The notes beneath the pieces are model-generated. The model was given only the letters and a program-made list of their open reading frames with translations. It did no database searches and was not told where the DNA came from. This document shows, in pieces, positions 7,809 to 64,000 of a stretch of DNA of 64,000 nucleotides. The position numbers were made by a program, and so were the translations under genes. This stretch comes from Eubacteriales bacterium (GTDB lineage: Bacteria > Bacillota > Clostridia > Oscillospirales > CAG-272), in contig JAZQHC010000045.1 of NCBI GenBank assembly GCA_045540335.1, positions 85,108-149,107 of the forward strand, in the 5' to 3' direction. How positions within the stretch are numbered: the stretch's first letter is position 1; every line of letters starts with the position of its first letter.

Positions 7809-10800
7809 TTAAACGCGTTTTGTTACGCCGAAAACAGCATCCTCGCCGTTTATGTTCCAATTTGCGGTATATTCGCCGCCTTCAGAATAGATTACCTGTT
7901 CTGTAAGGGTATCGCCCGATATTTTATCGCAGTTGCGCTTGATAACGTCGATTACCTTATCAGAACCGCTTGCGTTAACAGTAATCTTATCCATTACCTC
8001 AAATCCGGCGTCTTTTCTCATCGTTTGAATCTTTGAAATGATTTCGCGCACGAATCCTTCTTCAATAAGCTCATCTGTTAAAACGGTGTTAAGAACGACT
8101 GTTATGCCCTTATCAGCCACCGATTCAAATCCTGAAACCTTTCCGGCATCAATGAGAAGATCTTCTTTTTCAAGCTCGTAAACCTCGCCTGAAAGCGTTA
8201 ATTTAAGTTTTCCTGTTGAATCAAGCTCTGCCATTGCGGCATTTCCGTCTATATTCGCAAGGGCTTCTTTGCATTCGTTGATAAGCTTTCCAAGCTTTCT
8301 GCCAAGTGTTTTAAGCTGTGGCTTGAACGTAAACGTAATGAAAGCACCCATATCATCAACGAACGATGCGTTTTTAACGTTTAATTCATCTTTTATTATG
8401 TCAATGTAGTATTCGTTTAATTTATTCGGCGCATTAACAAACATTTCAGCAAGGGGCTGTCTGTTCTTAATAACCGCCGCATTTCTGCATGCACGGCCTA
8501 ATGCCACGATATCTGCAGCTTCATCCATTTCTTTTTCGAGATCTTTATCAATAAGGGATTCGTCGGCTACGGGATAATCGCACAAGTGAACACTTTCGGG
8601 TGCATTTTTGTCGTTAAGAGCAACGAGGTTTCTGTATATATCCTCTGTCATAAACGGTATCAACGGCGCAGAAAGCTTAACAAATGTAACAAGACAGGTA
8701 TAAAGCGTCATGTAAGCTGCTATCTTATCGTCTGTAAGATCTTTAGCCCAAAATCTTTCGCGGCATCTGCGTACGTACCAGTTAGAAAGCTCGTCAACGA
8801 ATTTTTCCATTGCGCGTGCTGTTTCGGTGATCTTATAATCAAACAGATATCCGTCAACGGTTTTTATAAGTGAATTAAGTTTTGACAAGATCCATCTATC
8901 CATAACAGAAAGCTTAGATTTGTCAAGTGTGTAATCAGAAGCGTTGAAATTGTCTATATTTGCATAAAGCACGAAGAACGCATACGTATTCCACAAGGTG
9001 CCCATGAACTTTCGTTGTCCTTCGGTAACAGCGGCAGAGTGGAATCTGTTAGGAAGCCACGGTGCACTGTTTGAATAGAAATACCATCTGATAGCGTCTG
9101 CGCCGTGCTTTTCCAAAGCATCAAACGGGTCAACCGCGTTGCCTTTGGATTTTGACATTTTCTGACCGTTTTCATCTTGAACGTGACCCAAAACGATAAC
9201 GTTTTTGTAGGGGGCTTTGTCGAATATCAGTGTTGATATCGCCAACAATGAGTAGAACCAACCTCTTGTCTGGTCAACCGCCTCGGATATGAAATCCGCA
9301 GGGTAGTTTTGTTCAAACAAATCTGCATTTTCAAAAGGATAGTGCCATTGTGCAAAAGGCATAGCACCGGAATCATACCAGCAGTCGATAACTTCTTTTA
9401 CCCTGTGCATTTCACCGCCGCATTCAGGGCATTTGATTGTAACATCGTCGATATAAGGGCGGTGAAGCTCGATGTTATCGGGGCAGTTGTCAGACATTTC
9501 TTTTAATTCAGCTATACTGCCTATGCTGTGCCTGTGGCCGCATGAGCATTCCCATATATTCAAAGGCGTTCCCCAATATCTGTCACGGGAAATACCCCAG
9601 TCTTGAACGTTTTTAAGCCATTCGCCGAAACGGCCGGTACCGATAGTTTCGGGAATCCAGTTAATAGTGTCGTTATTTTTAAGAAGCTTGTCTTTCACAT
9701 CGGTCATTCTGATGAACCATGTGTTTCTTGCGTAATAAATAAGGGGGGTATCGCATCTCCAGCAGAATGGGTACGAGTGTTCGAAAGGAAGTGTTTTGAA
9801 CAAAAGACCCCTTACCTTCAAATCATACAAAACATCTTTATCAGCTTCTTTGCAGAACGTTCCTGCCCAGGGGGTTTCCTTCGTCATGCAACCCTTTGCA
9901 TCAACGAGTTGAACGAAAGGAAGACCGTATTTCCTTCCAACCTGCGCGTCGTCTTCGCCGAATGCAGGTGCGATGTGTACGATACCTGTACCGTCGGTAA
10001 GTGTAACGTATTCTGCACACGTGATATAAAAAGCTTTTTCTTCAGGTTGAACGAAGTCGAACAAAGGAACGTATTCTCTACCCTCAAGGTCTGCACCTTT
10101 GTAAGATTCAATAATTTCGCATTCGCCAACAACCTTTTCAGCAAGTGCTTGCGCGAGAATGTAATATTCACCGTTTGCGGAAACCTTAACGTAATCTTCT
10201 TTCGCATTAACGCAAAGCGCTACGTTTGAAGGTAAAGTCCACGGGGTGGTAGTCCAAGCAAGATAGTAAACGTTTTCTTCACCTTTAAGACGGAATTTAG
10301 CAATTGCGGATTTTTCTTTTACATCCTTATATCCTTGTGCAACTTCGTGTGAAGAAAGCGGTGTGCCGCATCTCGGACAATAAGGAACGATTTTGAAGCC
10401 CTTGTAAAGCAAACCGTCGTTGTAAATCTTTTTCAAAGACCACCAAACAGATTCAATATAATCGTTTGTGTAAGTAACGTAAGGGTCATTCATATCCGCC
10501 CAGTATCCAACCGTGCCGGAAAAATCTTCCCACATGCCTTTGTATTTCCAAACGCTTTCCTTACATTTGGTAATGAAAGGTTCAAGACCGTATTGTTCAA
10601 CCTGTTCTTTTCCGTCAAGGCCGAGAAGCTTTTCAACCTCAAGCTCAACCGGAAGACCGTGCGTATCCCAACCTGCTTTACGAAGAACGTGGTAGCCCTT
10701 CATCGTTCTGTATCTTGGTATCATATCTTTTATAACACGCGTAAGAACATGTCCGATATGAGGTTTACCGTTTGCTGTGGGAGGGCCGTCGTAGAAAGTA

Positions 10801-10922
10801 AAATTATCCCCGCCTTCCCTGATATCTATACTTTTTTCAAAAATCTTGTTTTCTGTCCAAAATTTTTCCGTTGCCCTTTCGCGCGACTGAAAATCGAGAT
10901 TTGAAGGTACTTTGTTATACAT
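7809..10922 (-). CDS. ileS: Isoleucine--tRNA ligase, long 1037-aa type
   Basis: HIGH motif (PPTANGKPHIGHV), KMSKSKGN, a CP1 editing domain and a zinc-binding C-terminus are all present. Confidence 0.9.
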   Translation of the reverse strand: MYNKVPSNLDFQSRERATEKFWTENKIFEKSIDIREGGDNFTFYDGPPTANGKPHIGHVLTRVIKDMIPRYRTMKGYHVLRKAGWDTHGLPVELEVEKLLGLDGKEQVEQYGLEPFITKCKESVWKYKGMWEDFSGTVGYWADMNDPYVTYTNDYIESVWWSLKKIYNDGLLYKGFKIVPYCPRCGTPLSSHEVAQGYKDVKEKSAIAKFRLKGEENVYYLAWTTTPWTLPSNVALCVNAKEDYVKVSANGEYYILAQALAEKVVGECEIIESYKGADLEGREYVPLFDFVQPEEKAFYITCAEYVTLTDGTGIVHIAPAFGEDDAQVGRKYGLPFVQLVDAKGCMTKETPWAGTFCKEADKDVLYDLKVRGLLFKTLPFEHSYPFCWRCDTPLIYYARNTWFIRMTDVKDKLLKNNDTINWIPETIGTGRFGEWLKNVQDWGISRDRYWGTPLNIWECSCGHRHSIGSIAELKEMSDNCPDNIELHRPYIDDVTIKCPECGGEMHRVKEVIDCWYDSGAMPFAQWHYPFENADLFEQNYPADFISEAVDQTRGWFYSLLAISTLIFDKAPYKNVIVLGHVQDENGQKMSKSKGNAVDPFDALEKHGADAIRWYFYSNSAPWLPNRFHSAAVTEGQRKFMGTLWNTYAFFVLYANIDNFNASDYTLDKSKLSVMDRWILSKLNSLIKTVDGYLFDYKITETARAMEKFVDELSNWYVRRCRERFWAKDLTDDKIAAYMTLYTCLVTFVKLSAPLIPFMTEDIYRNLVALNDKNAPESVHLCDYPVADESLIDKDLEKEMDEAADIVALGRACRNAAVIKNRQPLAEMFVNAPNKLNEYYIDIIKDELNVKNASFVDDMGAFITFTFKPQLKTLGRKLGKLINECKEALANIDGNAAMAELDSTGKLKLTLSGEVYELEKEDLLIDAGKVSGFESVADKGITVVLNTVLTDELIEEGFVREIISKIQTMRKDAGFEVMDKITVNASGSDKVIDVIKRNCDKISGDTLTEQVIYSEGGEYTANWNINGEDAVFGVTKRV

Positions 10923-13541: not shown

Positions 13542-16178
13542 TTATTTACCTGCCTTTTCTAAAATATTATACACTTCATTAAGTGCTTCATCAATTTTTT
13601 CGGCAATCTTTATACCCGAAGTTGCATTATCGGGTCTTCCGCCGCCACCGCCGCCTGCGATCTTACTGATTTCCTTCAAAATATTTCCTGCGTGTGCGCC
13701 CGATTTAACGGCTTCAGCGCCGGCACAGGCTACAAGATTCAACTTATCTGCATTGTTAGTTGCAATAACAGCAACAACGGAAGGATCTTGTGATTTGATT
13801 TTGTCGCAAAGCGCCCTTGCAGCATCAACGGAAACGCCTTCCGTTTTTCCGGTAATAACTGTAAATACACCAATGGACTTTTTGTTTTTGAAAATACTAT
13901 CAGCTTGAGATGCGGCAATTTTGTTATTCAAACGCTCTATCTCGTGCTTTTCTTCCTTCAATTCCGCTTGGAGTTGTGCGGCCTTTTTGTCTATTTCTGT
14001 AAGGTTGGAAGCCTTTAATTCCCTTGCACAGTTTGCTATAAGGGTTTGTTTTTCTTCGAGAAGCTTCAAAACGTTTTTGCCGGTCGTTCCTTCTATTCTG
14101 CGTACACCGGAAGCAACGGAAGATTCGGAAATGATCTTAAAAAGACCTGCCTTTGCAGTATTGTCAAGATGCGTACCGCCGCACAATTCAGTGGAATAAT
14201 CGCCCATTTTAACAACTCTTACAACGTCACCGTACTTTTCGCCAAACAAAGCCATTGCACCCATTCCGCGTGCGGTTTCAACGTCTGTTTCAAGCGTAAC
14301 GATAGGCGTCCCTGAAAGAACCGCTTCGTTTACAAGGTCTTCAACCTTTTGGATTTCCTCAGAAGTCATAGCTGTGTAATGCGAAAAGTCAAATCTTACC
14401 CTTTCGCTATCAACGTACGAGCCTGCCTGTTCAACGTGTGTACCGAGAACAGCACGCAAAGCGCCTTGCAACAAATGTGCTGCAGAGTGATTTCTGCGTA
14501 TTGCATCGCGTCTTTCGGCGTCAACTATGGCAGTTGCGGCATCTGCTGTGGATACCGTACCTTCAACGTAGCATCTATGCATAAATATGCCGTTTGCTTT
14601 TTTCGTATCTTTAACCGCAATTACGGCATTTGCTGTTTTAATTACGCCTGTGTCGCCTACCTGACCGCCGCCTTCGCCGTAAAAAGGTGTTTTATCAAGA
14701 ATAATTACAGCGTCGCTGTCAGCTACGGAATCCAAAGATTCGTTATCGGCAGATACTATTGCTTTGATCGTACAATCGCTTTGGCATGTTTCATATCCAA
14801 CGAATTCGGTAGGCTGTGATCTGTCAAGAAAATCAAACGTTTCATCACTCCAACTGAAGTCGCCAAGCTCTGCCCTTGCGCGCCTTGCACGTTCTTTTTG
14901 TTCATTCATAAGGGCGGTGAACCCTTCTTCATCAATGCCGATACCCTTTTCTGTCGCAATTTCCCTTGTAAGATCAAGCGGGAAACCGTACGTGTCGTTA
15001 AGCTTGAAAACATCTTCCGCCGAAAGCTGTTTTTTGTCTTCCCTTACGGCTTTTTCAATCATGCCGGAAAGCATGTCCATACCGCTGTCTATGGTTTTGG
15101 AAAATTTCTCTTCTTCTATGGAAACTATCTTCTTTATATAATCTAACTTTTCAGTAAGTTCAGGATATTCTGAAAGATTTTCTTTAGCAACCACGGGAAC
15201 AATGTCGGCAAGGAAAGTTTCTTTTATACCCAGTAATTTTCCATGGCGTGCCGCACGGCGAAGCAATCTGCGAAGTACGTATCCCCTGCCCTCGTTAGAG
15301 GGTACTACACCGTCGCAAATTAAGAAGCAAGTGCTTCTGATGTGGTCTGTGATAACGCGCAAGGAAACGTCGCTTTCGGGATCAGCACCGTATGTGATTC
15401 CGGCCTTGGATATAATTGCTTTCATAATGTTTTGCACTGTATCAACTTCGAAAAGGTTGTTAACACCTTGCATGATACAAGCGATTCTTTCAAGGCCCAT
15501 ACCCGTATCTATATTGGGCTTTGCAAGAGGTGTATAATTACCGGCACCGTCGCTTTCAAATTGGGTAAACACCAAGTTCCAAAACTCAACAAATCTGTCG
15601 CAATCGCATCCAACTGCACAATCGGGTGAACCGCAACCATGCTCTATACCTCTGTCGAAGTACAATTCAGAACATGGGCCGCAAGGACCGGAACCGATTT
15701 CCCAGAAGTTGTCCTCTTTGCCGAGACGAACCATATGAGAAGGGTCAACACCAACTTCCTTTGTCCATATATCGAACGCTTCGTCATCGTTTTCGTAAAT
15801 ACTTACGTAAAGTCTGTCAACCGGCAATTCGAGAACTTGCGTGCAGAATTCCCATGCCCAAGCGGTAGCCTCGTGCTTGAAGTAATCGCCAAATGAGAAG
15901 TTTCCGAGCATCTCGAAATAAGTTCCGTGGCGTGCAGTTTTACCGACTCTTTCAATATCGGGCGTTCTTATACACTTTTGGCAAGTAGTCATTCTGTGAC
16001 GTGGCGGTTCTTTCTCGCCTGTGAAGAATTTTTTCAAAGGTGCCATTCCGGCGTTGATAAGTAAAAGTGATTTGTCGTCCTGTGGGACAAGGGGAAAACT
16101 TTTGTGACGAAGATGCCCCTTTGATTCGTAAAATTTCAAATACTTTTCTCTTATATCGTTAAGAGATAACCATTCCAT
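13542..16178 (-). CDS. alaS: Alanine--tRNA ligase
   Basis: The 878-aa product has the AlaRS catalytic core, an editing domain with HSAAHLL, and a C-terminal DHHA1-type domain with a GGGG motif. Confidence 0.9.
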   Translation of the reverse strand: MEWLSLNDIREKYLKFYESKGHLRHKSFPLVPQDDKSLLLINAGMAPLKKFFTGEKEPPRHRMTTCQKCIRTPDIERVGKTARHGTYFEMLGNFSFGDYFKHEATAWAWEFCTQVLELPVDRLYVSIYENDDEAFDIWTKEVGVDPSHMVRLGKEDNFWEIGSGPCGPCSELYFDRGIEHGCGSPDCAVGCDCDRFVEFWNLVFTQFESDGAGNYTPLAKPNIDTGMGLERIACIMQGVNNLFEVDTVQNIMKAIISKAGITYGADPESDVSLRVITDHIRSTCFLICDGVVPSNEGRGYVLRRLLRRAARHGKLLGIKETFLADIVPVVAKENLSEYPELTEKLDYIKKIVSIEEEKFSKTIDSGMDMLSGMIEKAVREDKKQLSAEDVFKLNDTYGFPLDLTREIATEKGIGIDEEGFTALMNEQKERARRARAELGDFSWSDETFDFLDRSQPTEFVGYETCQSDCTIKAIVSADNESLDSVADSDAVIILDKTPFYGEGGGQVGDTGVIKTANAVIAVKDTKKANGIFMHRCYVEGTVSTADAATAIVDAERRDAIRRNHSAAHLLQGALRAVLGTHVEQAGSYVDSERVRFDFSHYTAMTSEEIQKVEDLVNEAVLSGTPIVTLETDVETARGMGAMALFGEKYGDVVRVVKMGDYSTELCGGTHLDNTAKAGLFKIISESSVASGVRRIEGTTGKNVLKLLEEKQTLIANCARELKASNLTEIDKKAAQLQAELKEEKHEIERLNNKIAASQADSIFKNKKSIGVFTVITGKTEGVSVDAARALCDKIKSQDPSVVAVIATNNADKLNLVACAGAEAVKSGAHAGNILKEISKIAGGGGGGRPDNATSGIKIAEKIDEALNEVYNILEKAGK

Positions 16179-26870: not shown

Positions 26871-27089
26871 AATCCACCATTTAAAATACGTTATATTTTG
26901 CAATACTACCTGATTATTATAACACAATTTACTTTCCGTGTCAATGTTGTGCCGTTTTAAACCCCGGATATAAAAATTTGATTTGAATAAATTCAAAAGG
27001 TCATTTTATTGTAAATTTTTTAAATATATATATACAAATATTGTTTTTTGTGATATCATATATGATAATGTTGAATATTGGAGTATAAC

Positions 27090-31306: not shown

Positions 31307-32695
31307 TTACTTTATATCAGAATCATCAAATGTGTCGCCGCATTCAGGGCAGAATTTCGGGGGATTTGCGGGATCGGCAGGTTCCCAACCGCATTTATCA
31401 CAACGGTAAAGCCTTTCGCCTGCAGGTTTTTTAGCACCGCATTCAGGACAGAATTTCCCCTTATTTACTGCACCGCAAGCGCAAGTCCAACCTTCAGCAG
31501 GCTTTTTAGCACCGCATTCCATGCAGAAATTACCGGTAGCTTCTGCGCCGCAAGCGCATTTCCAAGTATTTGCATTTTTTACTTCAGGCTTTTTAGCACC
31601 GCATTCAGGGCAGAATTTACCCGTTGCTGTTGCGCCGCAAGCACATTTCCAACCATCGGCAGGCTTTTGTGCCGGTTGTATGGGTTGTTGTTGACCCATA
31701 GAATAAAGATTTTGTGCGTTCATGCCGCCGTTAGCCATAGCCATGTTCATACCCATAAAGCCCATCATTGCACCGTTTTCGTTAGCGGCAGCGGTTTTCA
31801 TAGCATCAACCTGACCGCCTACCAAGCGTGCAGCAGCAACATTGGGGTTAAGCGTCATAGCGTTTTCTTCCCATTCGGTGATCTTTTCGCGCTGTTTTTC
31901 GGGAATGGAAGGTACACCAAGGTTCATAGAGAACACCTCTATACCTCTTTTACCCCATTTTTCAACAAGCTGTTTGTTCAATGCATCAGCCAATTCCGTA
32001 GCGTGTGCGGGAATTTGATCGTAGAATACGCCGTTTGCAGACAATACAGCAAGTGCAGGCTGAAGTTCTGCAATAAGCTCGCCCTTCAACATACTGTCGA
32101 TTTTGTCGCGCGTATAATCAGATTCTACGTTACCGCATACGTTCGTATAGAATTTAAGCGGGTCTGCAATTTTGTAAGAATAAATACCGTTACAACGCAA
32201 ATCTACCGACATTTTAAAGCCAAGTTCTTCGTTGATAACTACGCGGAAAGGCACAGGGTTAGGTGTACCGAATTTATTATCGGGAATTTCTTTTAAGTTG
32301 AAATAATATATTCTTTGGTCCTTTCCCGTATCGCCGCCGTAGGTAAATCTTTTACCAATAGCTTTGAATGTTTCGAGAATGCTTGTACCCAAAGAGCCTG
32401 CGAAGATGCTGGGCTCTGTTGAAGAATCGTATGTAAATTCGCCGGGTTCAGCGCAAAATTCAACAACCTTTCCCTGCTCTACTATAATCATACATTGACC
32501 GTCTGCGATAGCAACACCGGAACCGTTGGAAATAATGTTTTCTTCGCCTTTTGTATTAGAAGAACGCGAAGATGTACGTTTTTGACCTTTTGTAACGAGA
32601 ACGTCTGCTGCAAGTGCATCGCAGTAAAAGAACTCTTTCCATTGGTCGGCAAGTACACCGCCGGCTGCGCCTGAAATAGCTTTAATAAGTCCCAT
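31307..32695 (-). CDS. SPFH (band-7)-like domain protein of the YdjI family with four tandem C-terminal zinc-ribbon repeats
   Basis: The N-terminus MGLIKAISGAAGGVLADQWKEFF resembles B. subtilis YdjI. The C-terminus has three near-identical units of W-x-C-A-C-G-A-x-x-x-G-x-F-C-x-E-C-G-A-K-K-P plus one degenerate unit. These show up as DNA tandem repeats at about 31320-31700. Confidence 0.6.
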   Translation of the reverse strand: MGLIKAISGAAGGVLADQWKEFFYCDALAADVLVTKGQKRTSSRSSNTKGEENIISNGSGVAIADGQCMIIVEQGKVVEFCAEPGEFTYDSSTEPSIFAGSLGTSILETFKAIGKRFTYGGDTGKDQRIYYFNLKEIPDNKFGTPNPVPFRVVINEELGFKMSVDLRCNGIYSYKIADPLKFYTNVCGNVESDYTRDKIDSMLKGELIAELQPALAVLSANGVFYDQIPAHATELADALNKQLVEKWGKRGIEVFSMNLGVPSIPEKQREKITEWEENAMTLNPNVAAARLVGGQVDAMKTAAANENGAMMGFMGMNMAMANGGMNAQNLYSMGQQQPIQPAQKPADGWKCACGATATGKFCPECGAKKPEVKNANTWKCACGAEATGNFCMECGAKKPAEGWTCACGAVNKGKFCPECGAKKPAGERLYRCDKCGWEPADPANPPKFCPECGDTFDDSDIK

Positions 32696-33044: not shown

Positions 33045-33189
33045 TTTATCCCCTTATGTAACATCATCCGACTGTATTATAATACTTTTTTGCAATTTTG
33101 TCAATAGTATCGGCAGTATTGTGAATTACCCAACTACGATATTATAAATATGCTTTCGAAGAACAAAAAAGCCCGGGGAAAACTGAATT

Positions 33190-46403: not shown

Positions 46404-46432
46404 TTGACATTTCAACAAAAATGTTGTATAAT
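46404..46432 (+). promoter_or_regulatory. Perfect sigma-A consensus promoter (TTGACA-17-TATAAT) for the lipoprotein gene
   Basis: ttgaca is at 46404-46409, the spacer is 17 nt, and tataat is at 46427-46432. This sits about 38 nt upstream of the ATG at 46470. Confidence 0.7.
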
Positions 46433-51901: not shown

Positions 51902-51930
51902 TTGACAAAACAAGTTAAACTATTTATAAT
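51902..51930 (+). promoter_or_regulatory. Perfect sigma-A consensus promoter (TTGACA-17-TATAAT) upstream of cotH
   Basis: ttgaca is at 51902-51907, the spacer is 17 nt, and tataat is at 51925-51930. Confidence 0.65.
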
Positions 51931-55304: not shown

Positions 55305-58300
55305 ATGAATTTTAAGAAATCTTTGTCAATTTTTATTTCGGCGGCGATGCTTTTTTCGCCAATCACATCTGTATATGCTTACGATGGTGAAAATACAACT
55401 ATAATAACGCACGAAATAACAAAAGTAAATGCATCATCAGGCACACTTGATAATAATATATCTTGGACTCTTGATGATAACGGTACACTTACAATAAGCG
55501 GAAATGGTGCTATTGCAGAAGGGGCATTTAGTGACTTGTATGATTTCACTGAATCATCCTCTATCAAAAAAGTAATAATCAAGAATGGAGTTACAGGTAT
55601 AGGCGATAGTGCCTTTTATGAATGCTCAAGCCTTACTTCCATTTCAATTCCCGCCAGCGTTACAAGTATAGCAGATTACGTATTTTCCGGTTGCTTTAAT
55701 CTTGCGACAATAACAGTAAATGCAAATAACAAACACTATTCAAGTGATGAACACGGTGTACTTTTTAACAAAAATAAAACGAACCTTGTTCAATACCCGA
55801 CGGGTAACACAAGAGTGTCATATACCATACCCAGCAGTGTTACAAAAATAGACGATTGGGCATTTTCGTATTGCTCAAATCTTACATCGGTGACAATTTC
55901 CGAGGGCGTTGCAAGCATAGGAAATTACGCATTTTACGAGTGTTCAGCTCTTACGTCCATTTCCCTTCCCGGAAGTATTACCAACGTGGGAGACAGTGCG
56001 TTTGAGTATTGTTCAAGACTTACGACAGTTGCGATATCCTCCGGTGTTGCAAGTATAGGCGATTGTGCATTTTATAACTGTTCTGCTCTTGAAAAAATAA
56101 CCGTTGACGAAAGCAATAAAAATTATTCCAGCGATGAGTACGGCGCCCTTTGGGATAAAAACAAAACCAAACTTATCCAATATCCTATTGGTAGCGGAAA
56201 AACGTCATACTCTATTCCCGAAAGCGCTACGGAAATAGCTGATTCCGCATTCAACGGTTGCTACGTGCTTACAGATATATTTTACGGCGGAAATGAAGAC
56301 GATTGGTCTGATATATACATAGGATTCGGAAACGACCAGCTTTATAACGTTACAGTACATTTTGGTCAAGAAACCTGCCCGCATGTTTATAGTGATTGGA
56401 TAACGGATATTGAATTTAAATGTGAAACAGGCGGCAAAAAACACAAGGAGTGTTCGATATGCGGTGATGTCGTAACAGAAGTTTCACCCGCCGTCAGTCA
56501 CTCATTCAGCGAATGGACAACCAATGCTTCAGGAGAATACGAAAGGCTGTGCTCTGCTTGCGGATATAAGCAAGTCAGACCGTTTTCTGTAGTATCCTCC
56601 GGTATATGCGGCAATACACTCACATGGACTCTTGATGTTAAAGGTACACTAACAATAAGCGGAATTGGCAATATAAACGAAGGTGCATTTAGCTTTTTGT
56701 ATGATTTTGCTGAATCATCTTCAATTAAAAATCTCGTAATTGAAGATGGAATTACAGGCATAGGAAATTATGCATTTTACGAATGCTCAAATATTGCTTC
56801 AATTACTATCTCAAGCAGTGTTAAAAGTATAGGCGATCATGCTTTTTCCGACTGTTCAAGCCTCGCATCGGTTATAATTCCCGACAGTGTTGTGACAATA
56901 GGCGGTTCTGCGTTTTCCGGTTGTTCAAGCCTTAAATCACTTACAATAGGTAATGGTGTTACAAATATAGATAGCTCTGCATTTTCCGGTTGCTCTGCAC
57001 TTACGTCTGCAAAAATGGGCAACAAAGTTGCAAGTATAGGCAGTTCAGTATTCTTTGGTTGCTCAAGCCTTACTTCAATTACGATTCCGGATAGTGTTAC
57101 AACTATAGGCGACAGTGCATTTAACGGCTGTTCAAGCATTACATCAATTGTAATTCCCCATAATGTTACAACTATAGGCGAGTGGGCGTTTTTTAACTGT
57201 TCCAACCTTGAAAGAATAACAGTTGACGAAAACAACAAATATTACTCCAACGATGAATACGGCGTACTTTTCAATAAAAATAAAACAACACTTATTAAGT
57301 ACCCTGAAAAAAATACACAAACGGTATATACAATTCCCGATGGAGTCGTAAGTGTATCCGCTTCCGCATTTCAATATTCTTTAAATCTTAAATCTGTTAT
57401 CATTCCCAACAGCGTTACAAGTATAGGTAATAGTGCGTTTGAATACTGTTCAAGTCTTACATCTGTAACAATTCCAAATAGTGTAACGAATATAGGCGCA
57501 GGTGTATTTATCGGTTGTTCAAGTCTTGCCAAAATAACAGTAGATGGTGATAATAAATATTACTCAAGCGATGGACAAGGTGTACTTTTTAATAAAAATA
57601 AAACAATGCTTATTCAATATCCTATAGGTAACACAAAAACGTCATATGATGTTCCCGGCGGCGTTTCTGATATAGGCGAGTGGGCATTCCAATATTGTTC
57701 AAGTCTTACTTATATTTCTTTGCCAAATAGTGTAAATAATATATCCTCCTACGCATTTTGGAACTGCAAAAACATTACGGAAGTTCGCTATGACGGTATA
57801 GAAGATGAATGGAACAGAATTGAAATAGCAGACGGCAACGATGATCTTTTAGCTGCAACAGTTACATATGTTCCTACCGAAACAAAAGAGGTTGGCTTAA
57901 GCTTTCTTACAGAACCTCAGAAAACTGTATATACATACGGAGAAGATCTTTCTCTCAACGGCGCGGTGATTGTAGTAATGTATTCCGATGGAAGCTATAC
58001 CGAGATTAAAGATTACACCGTAACAGGGTACGATAAATATAGCTTTGGTGTGCAAAATGTTTACATTACTCGCGGTGATTTTTCACTTGAATTTAAAGTA
58101 TCCATCGTTCCCGCTGAAGCAACTTCGGTAACAGAGCCTATAAACGAAGGAACAACTGTTAGAGAGTTGTCTGCTTTATATCCCTCTTATACACTCTTTG
58201 TATTTAACAATGACAAAGCAACTTTGCTTACAGACAGTGCAATTTTGAAAACAGGCTGTATCATTCAACTTGTTAGCGACAATTCCTTGATTGACAGTAT

Positions 58301-58478
58301 CGCGGTAAACATTGCCGGCGATGCAACGGGAGATGGCGTTGTTGATACAAAAGACTTAATAAGAATTAAAAAACAGATACTTCAAGGCAGCGCGGTTGAA
58401 TATATCGAATTTGTTGATGTTAATTGCGATGGTACGGTTGACGAAAAGGATATTGATACAATTTTAACAATGTTGTAA
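55305..58478 (+). CDS. Secreted BspA-type leucine-rich-repeat protein with a Cys-rich central insert, an Ig-like region and a C-terminal type-I dockerin
   Basis: It has a signal peptide. There are two blocks of about 23-aa LRRs (SAFxxCSSLTSITIPxSVTSIG). The dockerin is GDATGDGVVDTKDLIRIKKQIL...VDVNCDGTVDEKDIDTIL. Confidence 0.7.
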   Translation: MNFKKSLSIFISAAMLFSPITSVYAYDGENTTIITHEITKVNASSGTLDNNISWTLDDNGTLTISGNGAIAEGAFSDLYDFTESSSIKKVIIKNGVTGIGDSAFYECSSLTSISIPASVTSIADYVFSGCFNLATITVNANNKHYSSDEHGVLFNKNKTNLVQYPTGNTRVSYTIPSSVTKIDDWAFSYCSNLTSVTISEGVASIGNYAFYECSALTSISLPGSITNVGDSAFEYCSRLTTVAISSGVASIGDCAFYNCSALEKITVDESNKNYSSDEYGALWDKNKTKLIQYPIGSGKTSYSIPESATEIADSAFNGCYVLTDIFYGGNEDDWSDIYIGFGNDQLYNVTVHFGQETCPHVYSDWITDIEFKCETGGKKHKECSICGDVVTEVSPAVSHSFSEWTTNASGEYERLCSACGYKQVRPFSVVSSGICGNTLTWTLDVKGTLTISGIGNINEGAFSFLYDFAESSSIKNLVIEDGITGIGNYAFYECSNIASITISSSVKSIGDHAFSDCSSLASVIIPDSVVTIGGSAFSGCSSLKSLTIGNGVTNIDSSAFSGCSALTSAKMGNKVASIGSSVFFGCSSLTSITIPDSVTTIGDSAFNGCSSITSIVIPHNVTTIGEWAFFNCSNLERITVDENNKYYSNDEYGVLFNKNKTTLIKYPEKNTQTVYTIPDGVVSVSASAFQYSLNLKSVIIPNSVTSIGNSAFEYCSSLTSVTIPNSVTNIGAGVFIGCSSLAKITVDGDNKYYSSDGQGVLFNKNKTMLIQYPIGNTKTSYDVPGGVSDIGEWAFQYCSSLTYISLPNSVNNISSYAFWNCKNITEVRYDGIEDEWNRIEIADGNDDLLAATVTYVPTETKEVGLSFLTEPQKTVYTYGEDLSLNGAVIVVMYSDGSYTEIKDYTVTGYDKYSFGVQNVYITRGDFSLEFKVSIVPAEATSVTEPINEGTTVRELSALYPSYTLFVFNNDKATLLTDSAILKTGCIIQLVSDNSLIDSIAVNIAGDATGDGVVDTKDLIRIKKQILQGSAVEYIEFVDVNCDGTVDEKDIDTILTML

Positions 58479-58542: not shown

Positions 58543-58581
58543 TAAAATAAAGGTAGACACATAGGAAACCACTATGTATCT
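58543..58581 (+). terminator. Intrinsic terminator of the LRR/dockerin gene
   Basis: The sequence is GGTAGACACATAGgaaaccaCTATGTATCTACCttttt. Confidence 0.8.
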
Positions 58582-58622
58582 ACCTTTTTACGTGATATAA
58601 TAAAGAAAAGGAGTTGATAAGA

Positions 58623-58739: not shown

Positions 58740-58770
58740 TTGATATTTTGCCGATAACGTGGTATAATTG
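58740..58770 (+). promoter_or_regulatory. fic promoter (TTGCCG...TGgTATAAT extended -10). A 9-bp inverted repeat, TATCGGCAA / TTGCCGATA, spans its -35 region.
   Basis: The sequence is ttgccgataacgtggtataat. The inverted-repeat arms are at 58703-58711 and 58748-58756. Confidence 0.5.
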
Positions 58771-58798
58771 TTACAGGAAAACTTGTCAGGAGGTAGTT

Positions 58799-59683
58799 AT
58801 GGAATATATATCTGTCGCAAAAATGGCTGAAAAATGGGGGATTTCTGAACGTAGTGTGCGTAATTACTGCGCACAAGGCAGAATTACCGACGCCAAACTT
58901 ATCGGCAAAATATGGTACATCCCGGAGGATGCACAGAAGCCTGAGCGTGCGAACAAGAAAAAAGATGCATCTACATTGTTGCAGTTACTGCAGGAACAGA
59001 AAGCTTCTAAGATGACAGGTGGTATCTATCATAAAATTCAGATTGATTTGACATACAATTCAAACCATATTGAAGGTAGCCGTCTGACTCACGATCAGAC
59101 CAGATATATTTTTGAAACAAATACAATCGGTTTTGAAAATGAGGCTGTAAATGTTGATGATGTAGTCGAGACAGCCAACCATTTCAGATGCATTGATATT
59201 GTGATTGATCGAGCTGCTTCTGTACTGAAGGAAAAGCTCATCAAAGAATTGCATGCAGTTCTGAAAGCTTCAACCAGCGACAGTCGTAAAGATTGGTTTG
59301 CGGTAGGAGAGTATAAAAAGCTACCCAATGAAGTGGGAGGTAATACTACAACTCTCCCTGAGAATGTTTCTGATGAAATGTGCAAGTTATTGGCTGACTA
59401 CAATGCGATATCGGTTAAAACATTTGAAGATATTGTGGCTTTTCACGTGGCTTTTGAACGTATACATCCATTCCAGGACGGAAACGGACGTATAGGACGA
59501 TTGATTATGTTTAAGGAGTGTCTTAAGCACAATATCGTGCCGTTTATCATTGAAGATAATATGAAGTTATTCTATTATCGCGGTCTCAAAGAATGGGAAA
59601 GAGAGAAAGGTTACCTTATGGATACATGCTTTGCAGCTCAAGACCGCTTTAAATCATATTTAGATTATTTCAGAATTGCGTAG
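58799..59683 (+). CDS. fic: Fic-family protein (AMPylase fold) with an N-terminal HTH. It is class II, with an N-terminal inhibitory SxxxEG helix.
   Basis: The canonical Fic motif HPFQDGNGRIGR is present. The inhibitory motif SNHIEG lies upstream. The N-terminus MEYISVAKMAEKWGISERSVRNYC is an HTH. The start was chosen at the ATG at 58799, which has an AGGAGG RBS; the track TTG at 58748 lies upstream of the -10 element. Confidence 0.8.
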   Translation: MEYISVAKMAEKWGISERSVRNYCAQGRITDAKLIGKIWYIPEDAQKPERANKKKDASTLLQLLQEQKASKMTGGIYHKIQIDLTYNSNHIEGSRLTHDQTRYIFETNTIGFENEAVNVDDVVETANHFRCIDIVIDRAASVLKEKLIKELHAVLKASTSDSRKDWFAVGEYKKLPNEVGGNTTTLPENVSDEMCKLLADYNAISVKTFEDIVAFHVAFERIHPFQDGNGRIGRLIMFKECLKHNIVPFIIEDNMKLFYYRGLKEWEREKGYLMDTCFAAQDRFKSYLDYFRIA

Positions 59684-59735
59684 TGAATTATTATTTGTAA
59701 TTTATGATTTTGGGTAGCATAGTTATACAGATAAA

Positions 59736-59854
59736 CAAAAAAGACCTCTGAAAGAGGTCAATTGTGCACACGCTGTGCAATCGGCAGAGCCGACGATTTG
59801 AGAATTCTTTTATTTGAACTCGTAGTGTAATTTATAAGGGATATAAATTACACT
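59736..59854 (-). ncRNA. Candidate tracrRNA: an antisense small RNA in the cas9 5' intergenic region
   Basis: The minus strand has a perfect TTGACA (59886-59881)-17-TATAAT (59863-59858) promoter, so the transcript starts near 59851. About 116 nt of RNA follow: GUAAUUUAUAUCCCUUAUAAAUUACACUACGAGUUCAAAUAAAAGAAUUCUCAAAUCGUCGGCUCUGCCGAUUGCACAGCGUGUGCACAAUU. It ends in the terminator GACCUCUuucAGAGGUCUUUUUUG. Internal hairpins are UCGGCucuGCCGA and GCACAgcgUGUGC. GAGUUCAAAUAAAAG resembles the SpCas9 tracrRNA segment AAGUUAAAAUAAGG. Confidence 0.45.
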
Positions 59855-59887
59855 GTCATTATATAACAAAAAGGAAGGTTTGTCAAT

Positions 59888-62800
59888 ATGAAAAACGAAA
59901 AATATTATATAGGACTCGATATAGGCACAGATTCTGTCGGTTATGCAGTAACCGACGAAGAATACAATCTTTGTAAATTTAAAGGTGAACCTATGTGGGG
60001 TGTCACCTTGTTTGATCCGGCACAACTCGCTGTTAATCGCAGAGAGTTCCGTGCAGCAAGAAGAAGACTTGACCGCAGACAGCAAAGAGCGAAATTTATG
60101 ATGGACCTTTTTGCAAAAGAAATAGCAAAAGTTGATGAGGATTTTTACAGGAGAATAAAAGAAAGTTATCTGTATCCTGAAAATGAGGGAAAAAAAGTAA
60201 GACTTTTTGGATCTTTCGCAGAACAAAAAGCGTATGCTGAAAAATATCCGACAATACATCATCTGATATGTGAATTGATGAACGATCCGTCACCGCACGA
60301 TGTAAGACTTGTTTATATCGCTTGTTCCTGGCTCGTTGTCCACAGAGGACATTTTCTCAGTGAGGTCGATAAACAAAACATAGATGAAGTTACGGAATTT
60401 AAATCTGTGTGGGATAGGTTTACTTTGTATATTACACGTTCCGAATATTCTCTGCCGTGGGAAGAAAGTGTAAATATTAAAGAAATTGAAGATGTTTTCA
60501 AGGCTAAACTTACTGTTACCAAAAAGTCAAAAGCACTGGCTGGGGTATTATTCAAAGGAAAAAAAGCTCCCAAAGAGATAAATGAATCTTATGAATACAA
60601 CTATGAAACAGTGCTAAAACTTCTTTGCGGCGGCAAAGATTTCCTTCAAAAGCTGTTTGGTAAAGAAGAATATGCCGAGCTTGAAGAAAAATCTCTTGCA
60701 TTGAATATGGAAGACGAAAAAATAGCGGTAATAATGCAATCACTCGACGAGTCCGACGCTGAATTCGTCTCAGTTCTTAAAGCAGTTTACGATTGGTCTG
60801 TTTTGGTAAATATACTTAAAGGTAAAAAAACAATATCCGAAGCAAAGATTGCGGTATATGAGCAGCACAAAGAAGACCTTGAATTTCTGAAAAAGTTTAT
60901 CAAAAAATATGTTCCGAATAAATACGATGAAGTTTTCCGTTCGTCATCGAATGCAAATAATTATGCCGCTTACATAGGAAAGAACAAAACGTCCGGTGAA
61001 GATGTAAACATTAAAAAAGCAAAAAGCAGAGAAGACTTTTGTAAATATATTCTGCCAATCATAAAATCCGTCAAGCCTGATGAAAACGATATACAAAAGT
61101 ATAATGAAACGGTTTCAAGACTCGAAATAAACGACTTTATGCCGAAACAGGTTGACGGCGATAACAGAGTTATTCCTTATCAGCTTTACTATTATGAATT
61201 AAATAAAATACTCAATAACGCAAAAGCGTACGTCGATTTTCTCGAAAAAACCGACGAAGACGGTCTTTCAGGTGCTGATAAAATATTGTCGATCATGGAA
61301 TTCAGAGTGCCGTATTACGTAGGTCCTTTGGTTGAAAACAAAAATAAGGATCGCAAACGCAACTCATGGATGGTACGTAAAGCGGAAGGAAAGATATATC
61401 CTTGGAATTTTAAGGATAAAGTTGATCTTGATAAGAGCGAGGAAGAATTTATTGCCCGTATGACAAATTCCTGCACATATCTTCCCGGGGAAGACGTGTT
61501 GCCTAAAAATTCACTCGTGTATTCTGCGTTTGAGGTTCTCAATGAAATAAATAATATCAAAGTCAACGGTAAAGATATATCCGTTCAATTGAAGCAAAGT
61601 ATTTACGAAAATGTTTTTATGCAGTATGATAAGGTTACTCTTAAACGCATAAAACAGCATTTGATATTAAACGGTTACGCAGCGGATGATGTAGTATCCG
61701 GTATAGATATCACCGTGAAATCTTCACTTAAACCGTTCAGAGCGTTCAGAAATCTTGTGTCAAACGGACTTATTACGTATTCCGATGCGGAAAATATTAT
61801 AAACCGTGCAACGTATTCCGAAGATAAAATAAGATTTAAGAATTGGCTTATTGAAAAATACCCGCATTTGCCTGAAAACGATATAAGATATATCATAGGA
61901 TTAAAATTCAAAGAATTCGGCAGACTGTCAAGAAAACTTTTGTGCGGAATAGAGGGCGCGGTGAACGAAAACACGGGCGAATATATGCCGATCATCCGTG
62001 CGATGTGGGAAACAAATCTCAATTTTATGCAGATAATCAACTGTGACAGCTTTGAATTTTCCGAAAAGATCAAAAAAATCGTTGATGAATATTACGGTAA
62101 AGAAAAGAAGAGTCTTTCTGAAAGACTTGATGAAATGTATGTTTCAAATGCGGTCAAACGTCCGATAATCCGTACGCTTGACATACTTAAGGACATAGTC
62201 AAGGTGCAAAAAAGAGACCCCGATATGATATTCATCGAAATGGCAAGAGGGGCAAACGAAGATCAGAAGGGAAGAACTAAAACAAGACTCGATCAGATAA
62301 AGGAGCTTTACAAAAAGGTCGATACAGAGGATGTACGAAGACTTTCGGATATTCTTGAAGACTGGGGCGATACGGCGCATAATAAGCTCCGGAGCGATAA
62401 GATATTCCTGTATTTTATCCAGCTCGGCAAATGTCTTTATACAGGCGATCCCATAGCCCTTGATTCTGTTCTTTCAGGAAACGGTGATTATAATATTGAA
62501 CACATTTATCCTCGTAGCTTTGTAAAGGATGATAGTGTTATAAACAATAAAATACTCGTTGATTCGAAAGCAAACGGAGATAAAAGCGATAGTTATCCGA
62601 TAGATCCGTCAATACAGAATAAAATGCGTGCTTATTGGACGTTTCTTAATAAAAACGGATTGATAAGTGATGAAAAGTATAAAAGGCTTATCAGAACTAC
62701 ACATTTCACAGATGAGGAGAAATTTGAATTTATCAACCGTCAGCTTGTTGAAACACGTCAGTCAACAAAAGTCATAGCAACGCTTCTTAAAGAGCTTTAT

Positions 62801-63982
62801 CCGAAAGCGGAAATAGTATATGTAAAAGCAGGTCTTGTATCGGATTTCCGTCAGAAGTTCGATCTGCTTAAATCACGTGCGGTAAATGATCTGCATCACG
62901 CAAAGGACGCATATCTTAATATCGTGGTCGGCAATGTGTGGCATCATAAATTCAGTAAACGCTTCTACATAAAAACTGCCGATAATAACGTAAAACCCGA
63001 GATCGTATTTGCACGTAAACAAATATGCGGAAATAAAGTTATCTGGCGTGGTGCAGATGATCTTAATTATGTAATAAAGACTGCAAGAAAAAACACACCC
63101 AAAGTTACAAAATATGCTTTTTGCAGAAGAGGCGGTTTCTTTGATCAGATGCCCGTCGCCGCATCTTCAGACCTTGTTCCGAGAAAAAAAGATTTGCCTA
63201 CTGAAATATACGGCGGATACAATAAACCAACTGCATCATTCTTTGTCCTTGTAGGATATACAACAGGCAAAAAGCGTGACGTTATGGTAATGCCCGTTGA
63301 GCTTTTGTATGCAAACGAGTTTTTAAGTGATCCTGACTATGCAGAAACGTATGCAAGAAATACGGTAAGCAGTATTCTGAAAAAAGACGTCAATTCGGTT
63401 GAAATACTTCTTAACGGAAGAATATTGAAGGTCAATACCGTTCTTTCTCTTGACGGCTTCAAAATGTGTATCACAGGAAAATCGAGTGGAGGAAAAAAGT
63501 TGGGTGTTTCAGTTATGGAAAGCTTCAAAACCACTGCTGAATTTGAAAGGTATATAAAAAAGCTTGAGTCTTTCATTGATAAAAAGAAGAAAAACTCAAG
63601 GATCGTTTACAGTGAGCGGTATGATGAAATTTCATCAGAAAAAAATATTGTCCTGTATGATATCTACGTTGAAAAATTGCAAAAGTCCTTGTATGCAAAA
63701 CGTCCTGCAAACCCGGTTGACTCGTTGGTGAAGGGAAGAGAAAATTTTGAAAAGCTTTCCGTACCCGATCAGGCAGACGTACTTTTGCAAATTCAAGGCT
63801 TGTTTGGCAGGGCGGTCAAAGCTGATCTTTCAAACATTGGCGGTGTTTCTTCAGCAGGTGTTGCAACGCTGTCGTCAAATGTTTCTAACTGGAAAAAGAA
63901 CTATAAAGACGTGCGTATTATTGATGCTTCACCATCAGGACTTTATGAAAAAACTTCCGATAACCTGCTCGATCTGCTATGA
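59888..63982 (+). CDS. cas9: Cas9 (type II, SpCas9-like, 1364 aa; likely II-A)
   Basis: RuvC-I is YIGLDIGTDSVGYAV. A bridge-helix-like RRRLDRRQQR is present. RuvC-II is IFIEMARG. HNH is NIEHIYPRSFVKDDSVINNKILVDSKANGDKSD. RuvC-III is LHHAKDAYL. The N-terminus is collinear with SpCas9, for example EKYPTIHHL against EKYPTIYHL. Confidence 0.95.
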   Translation: MKNEKYYIGLDIGTDSVGYAVTDEEYNLCKFKGEPMWGVTLFDPAQLAVNRREFRAARRRLDRRQQRAKFMMDLFAKEIAKVDEDFYRRIKESYLYPENEGKKVRLFGSFAEQKAYAEKYPTIHHLICELMNDPSPHDVRLVYIACSWLVVHRGHFLSEVDKQNIDEVTEFKSVWDRFTLYITRSEYSLPWEESVNIKEIEDVFKAKLTVTKKSKALAGVLFKGKKAPKEINESYEYNYETVLKLLCGGKDFLQKLFGKEEYAELEEKSLALNMEDEKIAVIMQSLDESDAEFVSVLKAVYDWSVLVNILKGKKTISEAKIAVYEQHKEDLEFLKKFIKKYVPNKYDEVFRSSSNANNYAAYIGKNKTSGEDVNIKKAKSREDFCKYILPIIKSVKPDENDIQKYNETVSRLEINDFMPKQVDGDNRVIPYQLYYYELNKILNNAKAYVDFLEKTDEDGLSGADKILSIMEFRVPYYVGPLVENKNKDRKRNSWMVRKAEGKIYPWNFKDKVDLDKSEEEFIARMTNSCTYLPGEDVLPKNSLVYSAFEVLNEINNIKVNGKDISVQLKQSIYENVFMQYDKVTLKRIKQHLILNGYAADDVVSGIDITVKSSLKPFRAFRNLVSNGLITYSDAENIINRATYSEDKIRFKNWLIEKYPHLPENDIRYIIGLKFKEFGRLSRKLLCGIEGAVNENTGEYMPIIRAMWETNLNFMQIINCDSFEFSEKIKKIVDEYYGKEKKSLSERLDEMYVSNAVKRPIIRTLDILKDIVKVQKRDPDMIFIEMARGANEDQKGRTKTRLDQIKELYKKVDTEDVRRLSDILEDWGDTAHNKLRSDKIFLYFIQLGKCLYTGDPIALDSVLSGNGDYNIEHIYPRSFVKDDSVINNKILVDSKANGDKSDSYPIDPSIQNKMRAYWTFLNKNGLISDEKYKRLIRTTHFTDEEKFEFINRQLVETRQSTKVIATLLKELYPKAEIVYVKAGLVSDFRQKFDLLKSRAVNDLHHAKDAYLNIVVGNVWHHKFSKRFYIKTADNNVKPEIVFARKQICGNKVIWRGADDLNYVIKTARKNTPKVTKYAFCRRGGFFDQMPVAASSDLVPRKKDLPTEIYGGYNKPTASFFVLVGYTTGKKRDVMVMPVELLYANEFLSDPDYAETYARNTVSSILKKDVNSVEILLNGRILKVNTVLSLDGFKMCITGKSSGGKKLGVSVMESFKTTAEFERYIKKLESFIDKKKKNSRIVYSERYDEISSEKNIVLYDIYVEKLQKSLYAKRPANPVDSLVKGRENFEKLSVPDQADVLLQIQGLFGRAVKADLSNIGGVSSAGVATLSSNVSNWKKNYKDVRIIDASPSGLYEKTSDNLLDLL

Positions 63983-64000
63983 GTTGGCGTACTGTTGTTA

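Follow-up and report, generated by a model that had tools for sequence, protein, structure and literature searches.

A probable tracrRNA gene divergent from a type II-A cas9 in an uncultured Eubacteriales lineage, with a conserved predicted 5' hairpin

The cas9 locus and its relatives

The window analyzed here, by which we mean the whole 64-kb stretch of DNA, ends in a cas9 gene and the start of an overlapping cas1 gene (Table 1). Directly upstream, separated from cas9 by a gap of 204 nt (59684-59887), lies a plus-strand gene with weak matches to Fic proteins (58748-59683), and most of that gap is filled by a predicted RNA unit on the minus strand that is the subject of this report. The unit is thus encoded inside a type II locus, adjoining cas9. 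A Fic-domain gene likewise stands upstream in a related locus whose Cas9 is just 63% identical (L025, 5860-6756).

A scan of reference genomes recovered a Eubacteriales MAG with an 87% identical Cas9 (L001) together with more distant loci, and a protein search followed into the contigs added loci with Cas9 identities of 78, 71, 70, 68, 67, 67, and 63%, all arranged cas9-cas1-cas2-csn2 and therefore of type II-A. In L018, whose cas1 start is the one matched by the window, cas1, cas2, and csn2 follow cas9 in that order. No relative above 53% identity was found in a scan of metagenomes. The closest Cas9 with a solved structure is FrCas9 from Faecalibaculum rodentium (PDB 9jwk), which was matched over its full length with an E value of 5.8e-212, against about 1e-128 for SpCas9; FrCas9 is likewise of type II-A size (1372 aa) and is used with an sgRNA (PMC12926199), but it belongs to a different, more distant clade.

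We note that the closest relative, L001, has lost its adaptation genes: cas1, cas2, and csn2 are gone from positions 14092-14456, where a 5' fragment of cas1 and a csn2-like tail are left in 360 nt. These 360 nt stand between cas9 and a 10-repeat array with an intact leader promoter, and the locus consists of tracrRNA, cas9, and array.

Table 1. Positions of cas9, of the predicted minus-strand RNA elements upstream of it, and of candidate plus-strand promoters in related loci (related loci in their own coordinates)
Feature	Position	Strand	Remarks
cas9, 1364 aa	59888-63982	+	TIGR01865, E = 4.6e-257, whole model; divergent from the predicted tracrRNA promoter
cas1 start ATGAGTTGGCGTACTGTTGTTA	63979-64000	+	overlaps cas9 stop; cut by window end; matches L018 cas1 start
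-35 hexamer TTGACA	59881-59886	-	predicted tracrRNA promoter; a single base short of the cas9 ATG (59888)
-10 hexamer TATAAT	59858-59863	-	spacer 17 nt; 12/12 match to consensus
Predicted transcription start, G	59851-59853	-	5-7 nt past -10, at base of 5' hairpin; predicted from promoter geometry only
5' arm GUGUAAUUUAUA	59842-59853	-	copies repeat positions 12-24; predicted to pair with distal anti-repeat
Anti-repeat UCCCUUAUAAAUUACACUAC-GAG-UUCAAAU	59812-59841	-	predicted duplex with relatives' repeat
Anti-repeat, upper stem	59822-59841	-
Anti-repeat, tracr-side bulge GAG	59819-59821	-
Anti-repeat, lower stem	59812-59818	-
Short nexus-like stem (AG AAUU CU)	59801-59808	-	3' of invariant GUUCAAAUAA; stem covaries
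Hairpin 1, GUCGGC-UCU-GCCGAU	59780-59794	-	helix 3; 5/6 pairs double-changed; 88.5% of cells paired
Hairpin 2, UGCACA-GCG-UGUGCA	59765-59779	-	helix 4; 2 pairs double-changed; 88% of cells paired
Intrinsic terminator GACCUCU-UUC-AGAGGUC + U6	59737-59759	-	7-bp stem
Candidate cas9 promoter, L019	9815-9843	+	12/12
Candidate cas9 promoter, L022	6758-6786	+	12/12
Candidate cas9 promoter, L008	9803-9831	+	11/12
Candidate cas9 promoter, L009	11-40	+	11/12
Candidate cas9 promoter, L010	9799-9827	+	11/12
Candidate cas9 promoter, L001	9762-9790	+	10/12
Candidate cas9 promoter, L003	8085-8113	+	10/12

A conserved minus-strand unit upstream of cas9

A previous reading of this DNA from its sequence alone (hereafter the sequence-only reading) had proposed that the minus strand carries a TTGACA-17-TATAAT promoter abutting the cas9 start, a strong terminator with a U6 tract further along, and a run of stacked hairpins between them that includes the segment GAGUUCAAAUAAAAG. 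All of these elements are present. The promoter matches the consensus at every position, and about 100 nt past it the hairpin GACCTCTTTCAGAGGTC (59759-59743; seven pairs, four of them G-C, and a 3-nt loop) leads into TTTTTT at 59742-59737. The 115-nt RNA between promoter and terminator is predicted to fold into four stem-loops at -36.9 kcal/mol, which corresponds to a z score of -7.4 relative to dinucleotide shuffles (-15.8 +/- 2.9 kcal/mol; 0 of 200 as stable), and it contains the named segment. The exact TTGACA-N17-TATAAT promoter occurs five times in the window against 0.07 times expected from shuffles, so that perfect-consensus promoters are not a product of chance in this genome; the other four are at 26916-26944 (-), 33076-33104 (-), 46404-46432 (+), and 51902-51930 (+). 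The absence of minus-strand coding sequence nearby was also a fair statement, since the sole mechanically called ORF on that strand (59810-60262, 150 aa) lies antisense within cas9 and has not been retained by the closest relative: a counterpart of at least 80 aa was sought in L001, with its 87% identical Cas9, and none was found.

Promoter, anti-repeat, scaffold, and terminator are conserved as a block in relatives whose Cas9 is as little as 46% identical, and the sequences stop being alike right past the terminator. TTGACA stands beside the cas9 start in the window and in L001, L003, L007, L008, L010, L018, L019, and L021-L025, and CAT-(A/C)-TTGACA with a recognizable -10 was found in 12 of 13 homologues, with L009 having TTGACT. 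The anti-repeat, an invariant GUUCAAA, the short stem, the two hairpins, and the terminator are common to 13/13, the terminator being at the same place in every relative with a stem of differing sequence. Conservation of both its promoter and its terminator suggests that the minus-strand RNA is its own transcription unit, separate from that of the array.

A covariance model built from the alignment gave a single strong match in each locus, invariably a short way upstream of cas9 and on the minus strand; in the window this match covers 59762-59857 (108.6 bits, E = 9e-23), and the only two other matches are array-internal with E values of about 0.5. Position and orientation, divergent from cas9, are constant in all 13 full-length homologues and in 6 weaker matches, including those at 36 to 37% Cas9 identity (42.8 bits in L007; 25-28 bits in L004 and L006). 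The arrangement upstream of cas9 on the opposite strand, which the sequence-only reading had likened to S. pyogenes-type loci, thus holds in every homologue, and a second tracr-like element, which that reading had named as an outcome that would speak against it, is absent from the window and from the related loci.

We tested a hand-drawn structure on the alignment of the 13 distinct homologues, using as a control the same structure with the pairing partners slid by 1 to 3 columns. The drawn structure paired 82.7% of cells, versus 28 to 49% with slid partners; 15 of 27 pairs were changed on both sides, and 0 of 500 shuffles matched any of the observed measures. The nexus stem alone occurs as AG/CU, CGG/CCG, GC/GC, GAU/AUC, and AAA/UUU among the relatives. 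Covariation therefore supports a structured 3' scaffold of nexus and hairpins, which would be the part that binds Cas9. Nexus length itself varies naturally within the clade: in L019 (9864-9970, minus strand) the stem is lengthened by an inserted hairpin, GAAUC-UCCG-GAUUC, with the remaining tracrRNA kept.

Complementarity to the relatives' CRISPR repeat

The window stops 18 nt after cas9 and contains no CRISPR array, and the pairing of its RNA was computed against the repeat of the relatives, its own array being outside the 64 kb. The 36-nt repeat GTTTGAGAGTAGTGTAATTTTATAAGGGACTCAAAC is identical in six relatives (Cas9 87, 78, 70, 68, 67, and 63% identical) and differs by one base in two further related loci. 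Because the repeat is so stable among relatives, that of the window's own array is very probably the same, and we would very probably expect it to start GTTTGAGAGTAGTGTAATTT.

A BLAST search with the repeat as query matches the window at 59822-59841, and the plus strand over 59812-59841, ATTTGAACTCGTAGTGTAATTTATAAGGGA, equals the repeat apart from a small indel. A plus-strand segment resembling the repeat is found 60-90 nt ahead of the cas9 ATG in every related locus with upstream DNA. The duplex between the repeat and the minus-strand RNA has a predicted energy of -30.6 kcal/mol (RNAduplex), the best of 21,320 windows covering both strands of the 64 kb (mean, -10.7; standard deviation, 2.8), although the margin in this ranking is modest, the runner-up being -28.3 kcal/mol. 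That second site, at 9770-9820 on the minus strand, gives a broken duplex inside a CDS of 1037 aa (7809-10922), and we judged it a chance match because of its discontinuous pairing and its place within a coding sequence.

In the predicted duplex the first 29 nt of the 36-nt repeat pair with the anti-repeat. The lower stem has 7 bp, two of them G.U pairs; next comes an asymmetric bulge in which one unpaired A of the crRNA faces the three tracrRNA bases GAG; and the upper stem, in which a single U is bulged out, has 20 bp. The sequence-only reading had ventured a repeat beginning with GTTTGAACTCGTAGTGTAATTT. Both flanking blocks of this prediction are right and the bulge between them is wrong, the repeat of the relatives beginning GTTTGA-GA-GTAGTGTAATTTT, with ACUC-type tracr bases set against GA in a way that could not have been foreseen. 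The anti-repeat is longer than was claimed, continuing through UCCCUUAUAAAUUACAC (59812-59841). That reading had also set in advance what would count against it, namely an array repeat with no complementarity to the RNA; against the relatives' repeat the complementarity holds, and by this proxy the anti-repeat would be complementary to the repeat of its cognate array. In L003, L007, L008, L009, L010, and L019, which have other variants of the repeat, the anti-repeat is altered to fit the locus's own repeat, with duplexes of -31.9 to -46.7 kcal/mol, while the shorter anti-repeat of L006 gives -22.5 kcal/mol.

Pairing with the relatives' repeat, conservation, covariation, and the adjacent Cas9 all support the interpretation already offered by the sequence-only reading, and we put the probability that this minus-strand unit encodes the tracrRNA of a type II-A CRISPR-Cas9 locus at about 0.93. 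Its sigma-A-type promoter, a single base short of the cas9 start codon, would fire away from cas9 and yield a primary transcript of ~112-117 nt ending at the intrinsic terminator, of which roughly positions 59841-59812 would anneal to each pre-crRNA repeat as the anti-repeat. By analogy with S. pyogenes, where tracrRNA processing and Cas9 loading were reportedly described in the work of Deltcheva 2011 and Jinek 2012, the upper stem would be cut by RNase III and Cas9 would hold the processed crRNA:tracrRNA through the lower stem, the bulge, the invariant GUUCAAAUAA, the nexus stem, and the two 3' hairpins.

A tracrRNA is the expected kind of element in a type II-A locus, and in this respect the main biological result is ordinary. 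Sequences resembling the repeat are the rule beside cas9 in such loci, having been reported at as many as 89% of them. The gene shares several traits with the short form of the S. pyogenes type II-A tracrRNA. Both are encoded upstream of cas9, on the strand opposite to it, between a dedicated promoter and an intrinsic terminator; in both a 36-nt repeat has its 5' portion bound by the anti-repeat (here by prediction), with a bulge separating lower and upper stems; in both an A-rich linker leads from the anti-repeat to a short nexus stem and then to 3' hairpins; and the locus type, cas9-cas1-cas2-csn2, is the one seen in the relatives. The repeat family differs (GTTTGAGAG... here, GTTTTAGAG... 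in S. pyogenes), and the sequence is too dissimilar for any Rfam model to match the RNA: a search of all 4227 families at E <= 10 left the tracrRNA region unmatched and returned only three chance snoRNA or sRNA matches elsewhere. The RNA is a tracrRNA by architecture, then, outside any curated Rfam sequence family. The S. pyogenes tracrRNA gene lies ~200 nt from cas9, whereas here the -35 hexamer is one base from the ATG. The primary transcript predicted here also starts with a 12-bp hairpin over the distal anti-repeat, a feature that the S. pyogenes short form is not known to have.

If the assignment is correct, it fills in the RNA partner missing from the annotation of this Cas9, whose host lineage is an uncultured member of Eubacteriales, and the predicted repeat, anti-repeat, bulge, and scaffold would suffice to design a single guide for the enzyme and its relatives.

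The predicted 5' hairpin and a possibly antisense cas9 leader

The unusual feature of this otherwise ordinary tracrRNA is a conserved hairpin at its 5' end, which the sequence-only reading did not mention. A perfect 12-bp hairpin, GUGUAAUUUAUA-UCCCU-UAUAAAUUACAC, occupies 59825-59853 on the minus strand (-13.2 kcal/mol), and the predicted start G is its first base. Because the distal anti-repeat makes up its 3' arm and loop, the 5' arm is a copy of repeat positions 12-24. Every relative with a Cas9 at least 46% identical has the hairpin, which was found at the same place in L001, L003, L008-L010, L018, L019, and L021-L025. In the alignment 6 of its 12 pairs (helix 1) are changed on both sides, and where the repeat differs (L003, L008, L009, and L010) both arms have changed together. 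When only the leader was shuffled, equally stable hairpins arose in 0 of 2000 cases for the window and for L010, and at frequencies of 0.004 for L008, 0.010 for L009, and 0.012 for L003; the test was uninformative for L007 because the leader of that locus is itself anti-repeat. A comparison aimed at the strand under selection counted 15 G.U against 10 A.C cells, most of the A.C cells falling at the outermost column. In a more distant clade (L004, L006, L011-L013, and L017; 37% Cas9 identity) the promoter is apparently closer and the RNA would start inside the inverted repeat, so that our claim for the 5' hairpin extends only to the clade of 46% identity and above. A literature search for natural tracrRNAs with a 5' hairpin returned nothing relevant.

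Before pairing, the first 29 nt of the RNA would form this 12-bp hairpin, with the 5' arm imitating the repeat and covering the distal half of the anti-repeat, while the 14-nt proximal part, CUACGAGUUCAAAU, would stay single-stranded. We suggest, with low confidence, that the hairpin shields the 5' end of free tracrRNA until an incoming repeat invades at CUACGAGUUCAAAU and opens it; the net formation of the duplex is predicted to be favorable (-30.6 versus -13.2 kcal/mol).

The position of the unit also bears on how cas9 is expressed. A single base parts the tracr -35 hexamer from the ATG, and the spacer of the tracr promoter contains the ribosome-binding site of cas9, so cas9 must be driven by a promoter at the tracr gene or past it. 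Strong candidate plus-strand promoters were found just past the tracr terminator in seven relatives (Table 1), with -10 elements ending 155-235 nt before the cas9 ATG, and in these relatives the cas9 leader would likely be fully antisense to the tracrRNA. At the corresponding position the window has no plus-strand promoter of 9/12 or better. The Fic gene has a promoter at 58740 (11/12), and read-through from it into cas9 is possible in the window, since the terminator hairpin lacks a U-run in the plus-strand direction.

The resemblance of the 5' arm to the repeat recalls tracr-L (Workman et al.; bioRxiv 10.1101/2020.05.21.102756), in which a repeat-like 5' extension also folds onto the anti-repeat, and it could be argued that the RNA is a natural single guide of this type, with the 5' arm replacing the crRNA and the loaded Cas9 repressing its own promoter as the S. 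pyogenes long tracrRNA does (bioRxiv 10.1101/2020.05.21.102756). The arm GUGUAAUUUAUA does copy part of the repeat and would pair with the anti-repeat into an sgRNA-like upper stem and loop. A tracr-L is recognized when 11 nt or more of its 5' extension match the cas9 promoter, a copy of the lower stem comes directly after them, and a PAM is present (bioRxiv 10.1101/2020.05.21.102756). Here, by contrast, the arm covers the upper stem only and begins at the predicted transcription start (0-2 nt before the arm), too close for a guide to fit; 5' of it stands the -10 box, whose bases do not pair with CUACGAGUUCAAAU; GTTTGA, GTTTG, and ATTTGA are absent from the minus strand over 59650-60500; and no lower stem, bulge mimic, guide of at least 11 nt, or upstream second promoter is evident. 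Without a lower stem and bulge the duplex recognized by Cas9 would not be formed, and we therefore rejected a natural single guide as very improbable.

The antisense geometry invites another view, that the RNA is primarily a cis-acting regulator, which would control cas9 by pairing with an mRNA leader transcribed across its gene from further upstream, and that its likeness to the repeat is secondary. The single base between the tracr -35 and the ATG, the inferred place of the cas9 promoter at or beyond the tracr gene, the plus-strand promoters past the terminator in relatives, and the hairpin without a plus-strand U-run are all in keeping with this. Such a regulator needs no internal structure, however, yet the nexus and both hairpins covary as would be expected of a Cas9-binding scaffold, the anti-repeat follows the repeat of each lineage, and a plus-strand promoter scoring 9/12 or more is absent from that place in the window itself, so that we give this view very little credence as a replacement for the tracrRNA reading, with which an antisense role is compatible as an added function. 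Least credible of all, to the point of being negligible, is that a decayed orphan repeat happens to lie between promoter-like and terminator-like sequence with no functional RNA: the plus strand at 59812-59841 does resemble a CRISPR repeat and Rfam finds nothing, but the whole block is kept to 46% Cas9 identity with compensatory changes in its stems and divergence right outside it, and a consensus promoter is expected by chance only 0.07 times per window.

Within the tracrRNA reading, the likely placement of the gene antisense within the cas9 leader in this clade hints at a regulation of cas9 unlike the tracr-L mechanism. We raise as a speculation, one we think unlikely to be borne out in full, that the repeat-mimicking 5' arm is selected because it gates or times pairing with the pre-crRNA or sets the lifetime of the tracrRNA, and that the antisense overlap couples the two genes at the level of Cas9. 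Were this so, tracrRNA and cas9 mRNA would each titrate the other or bring about its destruction, by way of RNase III and of polymerase collision, and the level of Cas9 would be tied to the supply of tracrRNA and crRNA without a tracr-L guide.

Further upstream of the Fic-like gene, and separated from it by a 16-bp terminator-like hairpin (58549-58587), the plus strand encodes a 1057-aa leucine-rich-repeat, adhesin-like surface protein (55305-58478) with partial matches of the HupY/LrrG type. A 69-nt tandem repeat lies within this gene at 57063-57202, and another tandem repeat, with a period of 75 nt, 3.1 copies, and 70% matches, is found at 31422-31668.
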